A stretch of 64,000 nucleotides of DNA from a plasmid, in the sequence record NZ_CP067021.1; one strand, given 5' to 3'. Position 1 is the first letter of the stretch, and each line of letters begins with the position of its first letter. The position numbers are program-made. Of this stretch, positions 1-9,000 are shown one piece after another.

Positions 1-3000
1 AACAGCACTAATGCTTTGCTCAATGAGTTTTTCAGAATCTAAATGAATTTGATAAACGGCTTTTCGATTAATTCGAGACCATAAAGCCTGAAACTCTTTA
101 CGTTCTAAATTGGCTTGGTTGATCGTATTGGTTAGCTTTTTATTGCCATTATCAGCCATACCCTCCAAAGCTTTAGGATCAAACAGCCCATCAATCAGCT
201 TGTGAATTTGCTCAGTATATGCAACCAAGTTTTCAGGCAATTCAGCCAGCGTACCTTGCTCTTTCGCTTCGTGATACTTTGGCGTTAACTGATCATTGTC
301 ATCAATATAATCGTGCTTAGACAGATGCTTATTAATCTGCTTTGCCATTAATTCAGTGACTTCAACACTAGACCCATCGGATAACTTAAAGATTTTCCCT
401 TTAAAGTAATCAGGGGTCGCTTGTGTCGGGCGATTCTGAATCGTATTCAGAATTTCTGATTGTAGATTCGACACAAACTCTTTGTAACTTTCATTGGTCA
501 CAACTGTGAGATTATTCAGTTTATGAATTTCTCCTAATGCCCCTTGGAAATGGTTGGCATCCATACGTTCGCCAAATTTATTCACTGCAAGGCGCATACC
601 ACGGCCAACTTCTTGGCGACGAGAAATTACATTATCTGAATGCTTTAAAGTACATATCACAAAGACGTTCGGGTTATCCCAACCTTCCCGTAACGCTGAA
701 TGAGAGAAAATAAAACGAGTTGGCTCTTCAAAGGAAAGTAGGCGTTCTTTATCTTTTAAAATCAGGTCATAAGCGTCTGTATCATTGGATACCTGAGCTT
801 CTTCAGCTTTCTTATCAATTGCTGGATTGGCAAGACGTTTTGATTTCTTATCAATTGAGAAATAACCGTTGTGAGTACGGTCTACCTCAATTGCTTTCAG
901 ATAGTCAAAATATGGGTCATTTTCTAAGTTTAGATCCTCAATTTCATTGAGTACCTGTTGATACTGTTCTTTAAAAATTTGAACGTATTCGCCATCTACA
1001 GGATTATTATCCTCATCATATTGACGATATTTTGCCACTTCATCAATGAAGAAAAGACTCAGGACTTTAATACCCTGATTGTATAACTGACGTTCTTTTT
1101 GAATGTGTGCACGAATCGTTTCACGGATCTGAATGGTTCGCATGATCTTTTCATCAACATGCCCCAATGCTTCACCCACATGAATTTTTGTGCCATTCAA
1201 GAAAGTAATCGAGTTATCTCGTGCATCAATGTCTGAGACTACATAACGGTCATTGTATTGTTCAGCTTTATTTGAAATATCGTAAAGGTTATCGCCTTTA
1301 CTAACCTTTCTTACCTCACGTTTAAAACCATTCTTGGTTTCAATCTCAATTTCTAAGCGAGCGACAGGTGCAGATTTAGATACAATGATGTCTTGTAAGT
1401 ATAAATAACCATGTGTACCCGTTAAGCCTTGTACTTCCACACCTTTCACGGTGATTTTTTTCACCAGTTTTTGGTTATAGGCATCCAAGGCATCCAAACG
1501 GTAAACAAGGTTATAGTTGCGCTTATGCGTCGCTGAATAGCGCAAAATGAATAAGGGGTTGAAGTTTGATAAAGACTCTAGGGTTTTATCCGCCCCCATC
1601 TTTTGTGGTTCATCCAAGATCAAAATTGGACGGTTACGACTAATCACATCAATTGGACGACGCGATTGGAATTCATCTAGTTCGTCATAGATCCGACGGT
1701 TATCTTTACCTGTCGCATTAAACGCTTGAACGTTAATCACCATGACGTTGATCCCACCATTCGAGCTAAAGCTTTCCAAATGGTGTAATGCTTTGGAGTC
1801 GTAGATAAAGAAACGGGCCTTTTTGCCGTATTGCTCTTGAAAGTGATCAGCCATCATATTCAGGCTTTTGTAAACGCCCTCACGAATGGCAATGCTTGGT
1901 ACGACTACAATAAATTTCGACCAGCCATACTGTTTATGCAGTTCAAACATGGTACGGATATAACAATAGGTCTTACCTGTACCTGTTTCCATTTCAATAT
2001 CAAGGTTTAATTGGCTTTTGGTCAGGTTCTTGCCTTTGCCATTATCATCCGTGATGAGTTGAGATGATCTTTGTAATCCACTTGCTGCTTGTACTTCCTG
2101 AATGTTTTTCAGTACAGCTTGTAGATCATAAATATGTGCATTCTCAAAACCAACTTCTGTAATAACTTTCTTCGCTTTACCACCTTGTAAGTCCAAGGTT
2201 TCCTCTAGCATGTCAACCTGTGCAGTTGCTTTTTTAGTTTTCGCTGCACCTTGGTCAATCATATAACGATGACCTTCAGAACGTGGTTGTCCTTTAAAGC
2301 AATCCACAATCGCTTGTACAGAGTCTTTTTGATAACCAAGGGTTTTAAAACGGATTTCCATTATTTAAACCCTCTTAAAGAAACTTGACTTCGGTATCAG
2401 GAGAGAGCTGTTTAAAGCGTTCTTTGATATTGGTTTTATCATGGTCAAGATGAATGGCTTTTTCTGCTGATACGAAGCGTAAAGGATGATCTTTGGCAAC
2501 TTCATCAACCACATCAAATGTCAAATCATCAAAACACGCTACAAGGCTATTGCCTGCAACATAAAATACTTCTTTTCCTGCAATAGTTTTACGTTCAATT
2601 GGTAATGAAAGCTCAAGCCCCCAATCCAACATGACTTGGAATAACAGATCTTCAGATGTACGGTCTTCTTTAATATTTGAAGCTAAATCCAGCATATCAG
2701 CTTGTTTTAAAGCATCTGGTGTGTAATACACATCTTTCATATTGCTAGAGTCAATTTTTAAGACTCGGAAACCAATATCTAAGTTTTCGATGCCTTCTTT
2801 AGTTGCATTATCTTCTATGATCTTTTTACCTGCACGACGGATACGTTCTTTGCTTAATTCAGTTATGAAATGAGGTAAATTTAACTCTTTTAAAGTTGAA
2901 ATAGCATTTTCAGCAATTCTTCTAGCATTCCCAGAAGTACTATGCAACATTAAATCTATATCTTCTTGTATTTGAACTAAAATATAATGCCTACTAATAC

Positions 3001-6000: not shown

Positions 6001-9000
6001 TCTTGATCGTTGAAGTATTGTCACTACCAATCACCTTGGCACTGTGCAGACCATAGCTTTGCAGCAAAATCGGTGCGATATGCTCATAGATATAATTCGC
6101 TGTATCCGCAAATGCAGTAAATATGATGACTTTACGGTTACTGGCATTAATTGGGTTCTGAATTTTCTCAACAACATGCGCTTTAAGATGCTGTAGTTTG
6201 GCATCCTTTTCAGCGTTAATTGGCTGAATCATTCGCAGTAAACCGAGAATAATGTGGTAGTCACCGTCTAGATCCGTTTTCCAGCTCAATAGATCCATAT
6301 CGGCCAAATGAATTTTGAGCTTATTACCGATGAGATCTTCAGTATTGAGTAACTCGCCATTTTCATCTTCATCGTAGCCAAAGTCTGGTGAAATACTAAC
6401 TTCATCATCCGCTTGACGTGCTTCAAAGTCGGCAATTTTAGCAAGTACATTCTCAATATTTTTCTTTAACACATTCAGCGTCAGCCTAAAAGCGTGAACA
6501 GAACTTTCTAAGCGTTTCAGTAAGTTAACGGTCATCAACGCCTGTAAGCTTTTTTCACGGTCTACCTGTCTTAACTTACCTTTGCCTTCTACACGAGTAT
6601 CAAAAATCTCTTCATATTTTCTTAAGGCACTTGGAAAGATATAACTGACTGGTGCATAAACTGACATCTTGATTAAAGAAAGATCTGCATAAATTTGATT
6701 CAGAGAAACACTATCCTGATCGGTTGATAATGCACAACGGAATGAAATTGGCTTGAGTCGTTGAGGGAACTGTCCAATATCTTTGGTGTCATAGAAAGTT
6801 TGAATGTGCTTTCTTGAACGAGCAATCGTCACGCTATCTAACAGCTTAAAGAAATCGAAATCTAGAAGGTTAAGAATTGCTTGAGTTGTCCGTTGGGCAG
6901 GATCTAGTTTTGCCCAGGCATTAAAGCTGGCCTGTGCTCTACGGAATATGGTTTCGATATCACGTTCAGTATCGAGCTTATTTTCCAATAAAACTGCATT
7001 GCCTTCATAAGCAAGGGCGAGCTGATTCTTGAGGTCAGTAAAGTGATTATTTACTGGTGTAGCAGACAACATCAGTACTTTGGTTTTCACGCCTTGACGA
7101 ATCACTTGATTCATTAAGCGGTCATAACGTGTTTCACGATCCTTGAACGTGCCACGGTTGCGGAAGTTATGCGATTCATCAATCACAACCAAATCGTAGT
7201 TGCCCCAATTGATTTTCGCTAAATCTATACCTAGGGTTTCACCACCTTTACGAGAGAGGTCCGTGTGATACAGCACATCGTAGCTAAAACGGTCTTTAGC
7301 AAAAATGTTCGTGACTAGGTTGGCGTTATAATTCGTCCAGTTTGCTCCCAATTTCTTAGGACATAAAACCAGAACGCTCTTATTGCGTAATTCATAGTAT
7401 TTGATTACGGCCAATGCAGTGAAGGTCTTACCTAACCCCACACTATCCGCCAAGATACAGCCATTATAGGTTTCTAGTTTATTGATGATGCCTACTGCTG
7501 CATCTTTTTGGAAATTGAACAGCTTATTCCATACTAAGGTATCTTGATAACCTGTGAGATCATTCGGCATGACATCTGCATTGATATCTTCCAAGAAGTC
7601 TTTGAAGATATTGTAAAGCATTAAGAAATAAATACGTTCAGGTGGATTTTCCTGATAGACAGACTCAATGTGTCGAATAATTTCACTGGTGACATCTTCA
7701 ACTTTTGAGGTGTCATTCCAAATTTGATTGAATAGCTGAATATAGGTTTGCACCATTGGTTGCTCATCAAAGCAGTTCACCATATTGGAAATCGCATTGC
7801 CTCTTTCAAAACCTAATCCCATAGGGGTAAACCCTTGAATAGGCATATAGGTTAAAGATTGCTCTGGTTTTTGAATACTTATGAATTCCTGCATAGGTGC
7901 ATTGCTATTATTTGACTTGAATATGGCTTTTCGTCGTATCCAATCTGCACATTCTTTAGCAATTGCTTTTTGTGATAACTGATTTTTTAAGTGAATTTCA
8001 AATTCTGTTCCATACAGGCTGCTTTCACGGTCTTGTTTAGGAATAACAAACTCACGTTTTTCCTTTTTTAGCTTATCTGTGACGTTATCAGCGACAAAGG
8101 TTGGAGATGTAAAAACAAATTGCAGCTCTTCGACCTTTTCTAATTCTTTTTTTAAAGCAGCATAGGCATAGATTGAAAAGTATGAAGCGGCAATCTTTAA
8201 TCTGGATTTGCTACTGAGATTTTCCCCTATATCTGAACCTAAAGTATTGTTGAGGTTATCAATGAGTTTCATAAGAGATTAGGGGTGAAATATAAAAAGA
8301 TGAGAAATTATAACAGTATAACAACCCTATACATGCCTCAAATCCAAAGTAAAGTTAGCCCATTTAAAAAGTGTATAGGTGTGATGCCTTGTATAGTGGC
8401 GTTAGCCAGCCGTTCCTTTTGCCTGGTACACATGCTTAACCTGGGCCATAGGTTCTCTTCAGATCCTCAGTGATCTTCATTTGAATGAAACCTAAGTTAT
8501 TACGCCAAAGATTAAAACTATACGCGTACAGCCTTCAGATCCGCAGTAAAGCATTCAATCTAAAAAAGTGTATAGGTGTGATGCCTTGTATAGTGGCGTT
8601 AGCCAGCCGTTCCTGTCTTTTTACATTAATGTCTTAAACTGGCAAAATGTAAAATCAACAACTTACATCAAATCTAATTGAATAAATCCACATTACAGTT
8701 CTAAACTCAATGGATTTTTCAGTTTAGAAAAATAGCGGTTTTTTACAATATAGTTGTAAACCTAGCCTTTCCAAATTGGTAAAACTTCTTCAAAGGAAAC
8801 TAGATAGATGGTTTGGAAGATGAACTCGTTTCATTATGGTTGGTATTTTCACCGTTACCCAATCTTTTTGTTTCTGTAACTGCTTGAGATTTTATAAAAA
8901 TTACAATACCTAAAACAATAATACCAACCACAAGAACTATTAATAGAATTTTATTCTTTTTCATAAGATTTTATAAAAACTGCCCAAATTTAAAATTGCA

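Follow-up and report, generated by a model that had tools for sequence, protein, structure and literature searches.

A candidate four-component restriction-modification system derived from Type III on an Acinetobacter plasmid

A large Acinetobacter plasmid (sequence record NZ_CP067021.1) carries an operon of four minus-strand genes at the left end of the 64,000-nt stretch of DNA analysed here, which we call the window. The genes encode an SNF2-family ATPase with an additional N-terminal domain, a DUF4391 protein, a Type III methyltransferase (Mod) and a Type III restriction subunit (Res). We consider the chances slightly better than even that they form a four-component restriction-modification (R-M) system derived from Type III, with an obligate SNF2–DUF4391 motor/adaptor module. 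This reading rests on gene content, domain folds, loss of the HKD motif, strict co-conservation and co-evolution of the genes, and swapping of the target-recognition domain (TRD) of Mod.

Gene organisation

The first-pass annotation of the window had placed four minus-strand genes between 8272 and 1, had read their close spacing as that of a single transcription–translation unit, and had proposed a composite system extending beyond canonical Type III. Open reading frames (ORFs), motifs, and Pfam and PADLOC matches agree on these genes. A Pfam scan of the window proteins recovers SNF2-rel/Helicase_C, DUF4391, N6_N4_Mtase and ResIII, accompanied by PADLOC matches to MTase_III and REase_III. The features are listed below (PLD, phospholipase D; SF2, superfamily 2).

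4997-8272, minus strand: SNF2-family ATPase, 1091 aa, from ORF and Pfam
7538-8272, minus strand: PLD-like (HKD-superfamily fold) N-terminal domain of the SNF2 protein, predicted to be catalytically inactive
4317-5000, minus strand: DUF4391 gene, 227 aa from TTG, or 225 aa from the ATG at 4994
2375-4303, minus strand: Type III Mod, N6-adenine methyltransferase, 641 aa from the ATG at 4300
1-2361, minus strand: Type III Res, SF2 ATPase, from the ATG at 2361; N-terminal 787 of 1056 aa
8273-8700, minus strand: non-coding region upstream of the SNF2 gene, with two exact 52-nt direct repeats; promoter presumed

The SNF2 stop codon overlaps the TTG start of the DUF4391 gene by 4 nt, or lies 2 nt ahead of the ATG at 4994, chosen as start by the Prokaryotic Genome Annotation Pipeline (PGAP) on a 99.6%-identical plasmid. 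Mod follows DUF4391 after 13–16 nt and Res follows Mod after 13 nt, with an AAGAGGG Shine–Dalgarno sequence ahead of the Res ATG at 2361. This bears out the spacing described at first pass and, together with the recurrence of the gene order in other genomes, supports a composite system expressed as one unit. Positions 1-8272 are 99.6% identical to A. pittii plasmid pR1041-ab1-275k, where Res is 1056 aa long and is followed by IS481; the C-terminal nuclease part of Res lies beyond the left edge of the window.

Conservation and co-evolution of the four genes

Genomes were scanned, one per species, for the motif EKQFNRKV, giving 477 confirmed loci, the best 80 of which were examined. Gene arrangement was counted only where the flanks reached 3.4 kb or more upstream and 9 kb or more downstream. 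All 52 loci with sufficient flank carry, on a single strand and in unchanged order, SNF2 (with its N-terminal domain), DUF4391, Mod and Res, and because it recurs in every one of them the arrangement is not a product of chance. Taxa with four-gene loci include Pseudomonadota, Myxococcota, Planctomycetota, Bacteroidota, Bacillota and Actinomycetota. All-against-all clustering of the ORFs of the 80 loci revealed no fifth conserved family, the other recurrent "families" being shadow ORFs inside the four genes. Neighbourhood conservation had been set beforehand as the check that could overturn the composite interpretation, and the two extra genes proved to be co-conserved with Mod and Res, divergent members included. 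The same four-gene order is found in Enterococcus faecium, Bacillus cereus and Vibrio alginolyticus plasmids, whose annotation wrongly calls the DUF4391 product a "chemotaxis protein", and on two human-gut scaffolds filed as phage, with DUF4391 at 24–32% identity. The system also occurs on ~110-kb E. coli IncFIB plasmids carrying phage-type replication genes such as dnaE, and is present in 37 plasmid records overall.

The SNF2 and DUF4391 genes form the closest pair. In 59 of 79 loci the end of the SNF2 gene shares 4 nt with the beginning of the DUF4391 gene, 58 times in the form ATGA, a sign of translational coupling. The pairwise distance matrices of the two proteins show a correlation of 0.96, and the other pairs among the four lie at 0.80–0.89 (SNF2–Res, 0.88). 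Mean pairwise identity is highest for SNF2 (75%) and lowest for DUF4391 (56%).

Since distant relatives of Res differ in their partners, the SNF2–DUF4391 pair marks one clade of non-classical Type III-like systems. An Aliarcobacter plasmid with a distant Res relative carries Mod–Res and other cargo, and no SNF2 gene. Plasmid p7 of Rhizobium sp. (L092 2838-11976) combines a DrmD-like SNF2 gene, Mod, a DUF262 gene and Res, and lacks DUF4391; its SNF2 protein scores 713 bits against a DrmD cut-off of 950, has no PLD domain, and appears coiled-coil-like by eye at its C terminus. As a separate observation, Listeria innocua pLI100 (L087) carries a homologous helicase-related gene (43% identity in the N-terminal domain) with IS1216 directly behind it and a methyltransferase gene inverted beyond this insertion sequence (IS); the locus looks like a decayed copy of the system.

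In about half of the loci, two fixed junctions accommodate unrelated genes of defence type. The gap between DUF4391 and Mod exceeds 300 nt in 38 of 76 loci, and the Mod–Res junction is occupied by inserted genes in 28 of 67, while an insertion between SNF2 and DUF4391 was seen once. Inserted genes include a UvrD-like helicase (900 aa), an OLD-family ATPase with DUF2130, AAA_13 and Schlafen/AlbA_2-HATPase_c_4, as well as Bro-N, Fic, PLDc_2, Abi_C and TIR_2 genes (loci with operon-internal cargo: L004, L024, L009, L014, L017, L059, L068, L021, L079, L085 and L086). Embedded cargo of this kind is typical of defence operons.

Domain composition of the four proteins

Mod has the architecture of a Type III methyltransferase, with IDPPYN (around aa 126) preceding FFSGSGT (around aa 416) and a variable region, the central TRD, between them. 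It matches PADLOC MTase_III (E 3.4e-210) and Pfam N6_N4_Mtase (PF01555). Between near-identical Acinetobacter operons the Mod termini are 80–100% identical, whereas residues ~200–480 share only 12–50% identity, and a GC trough of 0.32–0.34 across window positions 2501-4500 coincides with this variable region. As judged from these alignments, the variable centre is the pattern expected of TRD exchange. Because the central region is swapped between close relatives while the rest stays constant, specificity is predicted to reside in Mod.

Res displays the SF2 motifs TGTGKT, DEPQ and QEVGRGMRL within the window and matches PADLOC REase_III (E 4.5e-252) and Pfam ResIII. The nuclease motif YNPDWAI...VAETKG is kept in 53 full-length orthologues. 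Only they and the full-length plasmid copy show the PD...ETK signature of Type III Res, and Pfam RE_endonuc is found in divergent Res orthologues. Res is thus a predicted nuclease with a C-terminal PD-(D/E)xK domain. The NF012027 equivalog cut-off of 564 bits is reached neither by the window fragment (325.7) nor by the full-length copy on NZ_OR095731 (391.7), which aligns over residues 1–1034 to positions 1–962 of the 986 in the model. Identity to EcoP1-type Res on other plasmids is ~29–30%. By these sequence comparisons Res is homologous end to end with classical Type III Res, yet belongs to a separate clade.

The small protein had been labelled a coiled-coil protein at first pass, a description that does not hold. 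It belongs to Pfam DUF4391 (PF14335; E 5.5e-56), scoring 190.5 bits against a gathering cut-off of 29.9 and covering model positions 3–232 of 232. An AlphaFold2 model built with 40 diverse homologues (predicted local distance difference test (pLDDT) score 94.8) consists of an alpha/beta domain (aa 1–160) followed by a two-helix hairpin (aa 173–224), and the most conserved motif of the family, EKQFNRKVELN, is located at the tip of this hairpin. Comparison with the PDB gave no significant fold or sequence match, and PADLOC, NCBIfam and PHROGs hold no matching model. The family comprises 1369 clusters at 50% identity. Among the representatives P0161, P0196 and P0229 no extra domain is fused to DUF4391, with one exception, a truncated SNF2 joined to DUF4391 that may be a gene-calling artefact.

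The SNF2 protein consists of a PLD-fold domain without HxK (aa 1–245), an SNF2 motor (aa ~250–870) and a conserved region (aa ~880–1091) whose fold is not recognised. The motor carries the GxGKT, DExH, SAT and motif VI QxxGRxxR signatures of SWI2/SNF2 ATPases, readable in translation as GLGKT, DESH, SATP and QRFGRVDR and invariant across orthologues. Pfam identifies SNF2-rel_dom (5.6e-11) and Helicase_C (2.8e-14), the best PDB sequence matches are SMARCA5, ISWI and RapA, and the best-matching PADLOC model, C3a139 'HKD+Snf2', is matched over its full length (E 8e-124). Because the ATPase motifs are invariant, SNF2 is counted with Res as a predicted active SF2 motor, giving the system two such motors beside one nuclease.

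The first-pass annotation had recognised an extra domain in the N-terminal ~250 aa of the helicase, which stands, and had found nothing there that it could name, which does not. We predicted the structure of this region using homologous fragments gathered by protein search, and comparison of the model assigns the N-terminal 245 aa to the PLD/HKD superfamily fold. The best structural match is SauUSI (PDB 7clg), an ATP-dependent restriction enzyme. By sequence, PLD homology of the domain was found neither in Pfam (no PLDc) nor in a PDB profile search, and an hhalign comparison with a small PLD alignment from cargo genes gave a probability of 0.6%. The HxK(x)4D(x)6GSxN signature is absent; no His is conserved across orthologues at 28–68% domain identity, and motif spacing puts the Lys where an invariant Phe (F148) stands. 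The window protein reads Q146-G-F148...G152...G158-N-A-I-S-N163, with no other HxK in the domain. The PLD-fold domain is therefore predicted, from alignment and motif spacing, to be catalytically dead, and is probably a DNA- or protein-binding module.

Alternative explanations

Several points weigh against an obligate four-component system. The loci were gathered through DUF4391 or SNF2, so that Mod–Res pairs of the same clade lacking the two extra genes are under-sampled, and an Aeromonas plasmid carries a related Mod–Res directly after an IS without the SNF2–DUF4391 pair. The confidence of the N-terminal domain model is modest (pLDDT 61.8; core 70–89), and the loss of HKD is read from alignment and motif spacing rather than from a residue-level superposition. 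Mod and Res look complete alone, and the SNF2–DUF4391 pair could be dispensable for restriction. Finally, the tolerance of the DUF4391–Mod junction for inserts of several kb in half of the loci fits two modules equally well. On the other side, the strict co-conservation of the two extra genes raises doubt that the two Type III subunits are sufficient here.

The most probable alternative, although we regard it as unlikely, is the following: a plain two-gene Type III R-M system and an independent SNF2–DUF4391 system travel together, each self-sufficient. Mod and Res hold all canonical motifs, the SNF2–DUF4391 pair is the tightest in both distance correlation and ATGA coupling, and the junction between the two halves is often an insertion point. 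The halves nevertheless occur together in every locus with sufficient flank, as well as in Firmicutes, Vibrio and the phage-filed scaffolds, and the SNF2 and Res distances are themselves correlated. Furthermore, an independent SNF2–DUF4391 system would be left without a predicted effector, as its PLD domain lacks HxK.

The pair might instead control the R-M system, for example by delaying or alleviating restriction when the plasmid enters a new unmethylated host or by protecting unmethylated daughter duplexes once replication has passed. Type III Mod enzymes such as EcoP15I and EcoP1I methylate one strand only, which makes self-protection a real problem, and both the plasmid-borne location of the system and a PLD-like domain predicted to be non-catalytic are consistent with such a role. 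Known R-M controllers, however, are small helix-turn-helix (HTH) proteins, and some loci own an upstream HTH gene; a 1091-aa motor that is the most conserved of the four proteins would be odd for a regulator. We consider this explanation distinctly unlikely.

Kinship with DISARM class 1, with SNF2 in the place of DrmD, the fused PLD-like domain in that of DrmC and Mod in that of DrmMI, while Res stands in for DrmA/DrmB, appears improbable. The SNF2 protein does show sub-threshold similarity to DrmD (PADLOC 2e-36), and the Rhizobium plasmid described above joins a DrmD-like SNF2 with related Mod–Res. On B. cereus pMRY14-0057_1 (L088 6143-19876), the four genes are preceded, at a distance of 33 nt and on the same strand, by a bona fide DrmA gene (1009.7 bits, cut-off 950) and a DUF1998 (DrmB-like) gene; this locus, the only examined one with DrmAB beside the operon, may be a DISARM/Type III hybrid. 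The scores of the window SNF2 protein against the DrmD models, 153.8 bits (NCBIfam) and 94.2 bits, are nonetheless far below the respective cut-offs of 610 and 950. DrmA, DrmB and DrmC are absent from the neighbouring genes in the window and from the conserved families of the 80 loci, and Mod belongs to the PF01555 Type III Mod family.

Least probable of all is an effector role for the SNF2 protein as a combined nuclease and helicase, comparable to SauUSI, PbeA or the BREX-related Type-2 HKD-Snf2 helicase, with its PLD domain cutting DNA as a second nuclease of the system: the label of the best PADLOC model, the structural match to SauUSI and a His at the motif position in most orthologues (consensus MPLHGFT) are in its favour, but Phe invariably replaces the Lys, the domain offers no other HxK, and the His is not conserved, being Q in the window and other residues in the Firmicutes, Vibrio and phage-filed members.

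Proposed mechanism and significance

We therefore return to the four-component system derived from Type III, for which we infer physical complex formation, the roles of SNF2 and DUF4391, and anti-phage activity. Mod would methylate adenine at a short asymmetric site, both marking self DNA and reading the site, and Res would be the DNA-cutting subunit. SNF2 and DUF4391, as obligate partners of this Mod–Res clade with coupled translation, would probably form a complex, in which SNF2 may provide ATP-driven translocation or remodelling of double-stranded DNA and DUF4391, through its conserved hairpin tip, is the probable adaptor or regulator joining the motor to Mod–Res or to DNA. The pair most likely delivers or activates Res on unmethylated foreign DNA. 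In classical Type III systems Mod and Res suffice, and restriction needs two inversely oriented unmethylated sites; possible means of action for the pair are directional translocation, relaxing the need for two head-to-head sites, or the clearing of obstacles from protein-coated DNA.

A bolder proposal, which we put forward tentatively and hold to be rather doubtful, is that the operon represents a distinct and widespread class of ATP-dependent restriction with two SF2 motors, in which a nuclease-dead PLD-SNF2 translocase and a DUF4391 adaptor of novel fold alter how a Type III enzyme finds or cuts its target. Were this so, cleavage might for example extend to single or same-orientation sites, or to protein-coated or modified phage DNA, and the classical escape by site-orientation bias would be closed.

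In our sample DUF4391 is tied to a single architecture across many phyla, and clinically relevant Acinetobacter, E. coli, Enterococcus and Bacillus carry it on plasmids. Should restriction depend on the extra genes, or work differently because of them, a considerable fraction of the systems annotated as Type III would be two-motor machines of another kind, DUF4391 would gain a function, and the two fixed insertion junctions would be useful for finding new defence genes. The system is also relevant to plasmid and phage host-range barriers in Acinetobacter.

Surroundings of the operon and other features of the window

The two 52-nt direct repeats upstream of the SNF2 gene lie at 8366-8417 and 8563-8614, 197 nt apart, with no further copies in the window; a third copy (77% identity) follows IS481 downstream of Res on plasmid NZ_OR095731. 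The repeats gave no Rfam match, no stable RNA fold and no pdif/Xer module boundary. A promoter search returned weak promoter-like matches only, none of them on the operon strand within 8273-8700.

The operon and IS481 are flanked on the 99.6%-identical plasmid by directly repeated sequences of at least 300 nt, whose two copies stand 12,198 nt apart. The first copy (L081 7615-7914) corresponds to window positions ~9081-9380, and the second (L081 19813-20112) lies outside the window. A 54-aa transmembrane ORF (window 8800-8964) is annotated on either side of the operon block on the same plasmid. These duplications suggest that the block was acquired, or is excisable, by recombination; no pdif-like site was found.

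Beyond the operon, an overlapping three-gene unit on the minus strand (9498-12714) encodes a second, unrelated SNF2 helicase (555 aa, phrog_62), a 122-aa protein and a protein with an SprT-like metallopeptidase domain (394 aa). Its composition recalls the methylase/helicase/peptidase modules found in the 'polyvalent proteins' of plasmids and phages. An orphan Cas6e/CasE-like gene follows on the plus strand (12914-13621), with a weak Pfam CRISPR_assoc match and a PGAP annotation on the plasmid as type I-E Cas6; no other cas genes were seen among the neighbouring ORFs checked. The region 37870-44277 contains a umuC-like (IMS family) gene with adjacent umuD-sized genes, an IS30-like transposase, and a C5-cytosine DNA methyltransferase beside an unannotated 361-aa ORF, the last two possibly constituting a Type II R-M system.

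Relation to known defence systems

The first-pass annotation could not assign the four-gene arrangement to a known defence system, and our searches agree: PADLOC has no DUF4391 model, and we found no literature description of DUF4391 in a defence context. Since the PADLOC Type III models fit Mod and Res, while none of the models in the PADLOC library used matches DUF4391 and SNF2 is covered only by the generic 'HKD+Snf2' model, the two extra genes have no described place in Type III. The full-text literature on DUF4391 yielded only a Pfam enrichment table and a passage on DUF7941 phage baseplate proteins, with PF14335 appearing nowhere. The four-gene combination is not described in searchable full-text literature, a scope that excludes subscription journals and REBASE, and specialists may know the association. 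Publications on Hma and on YprA/ARMADA were considered as descriptions of the four-gene system and rejected, as they concern different systems. The nearest known systems are compared below, SauUSI on account of its architecture; none of them includes DUF4391 or couples a nuclease-dead PLD-SNF2 protein with Type III Mod–Res.

Like the present operon, DISARM class 1 unites a PLD-fold module with an SNF2 helicase and an N6-adenine methyltransferase. Res and DUF4391 have no part in DISARM, however, and the methyltransferase here is of the Type III Mod family.

SauUSI, a Type IV restriction enzyme made of a single polypeptide, attacks modified DNA with an active PLD nuclease. Here, by contrast, the motor is of the SNF2 type, the PLD domain lacks HxK, and the gene lies in an operon with a methyltransferase.

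The DUF499-centred 'Type-2 BREX-related' systems contain an HKD-Swi2/Snf2 helicase, an N6-adenine methyltransferase and DUF3780, with HKD taken as the primary effector (PMC12839542). The likeness to the present system extends to an N-terminal PLD/HKD fold joined to a Swi2/Snf2 motor and a C-terminal extension, and to an N6-adenine methyltransferase and small protein partners. The partners here, however, are a Type III Mod, Res and DUF4391 rather than the DUF499 ATPase, its N6-methyltransferase and DUF3780, and the HKD motif has been lost from the SNF2 protein.

With classical Type III systems (EcoP1I, EcoP15I and StyLTI), the operon shares the mod-then-res gene pair, the order of DPPY before FxGxG with a central TRD in Mod, and the SF2 motor and C-terminal PD-(D/E)xK domain of Res. 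It differs from them in that Res forms a separate clade and in the two extra upstream genes, encoding the PLD-like SNF2 protein and DUF4391, which are strictly co-conserved with the Type III pair.

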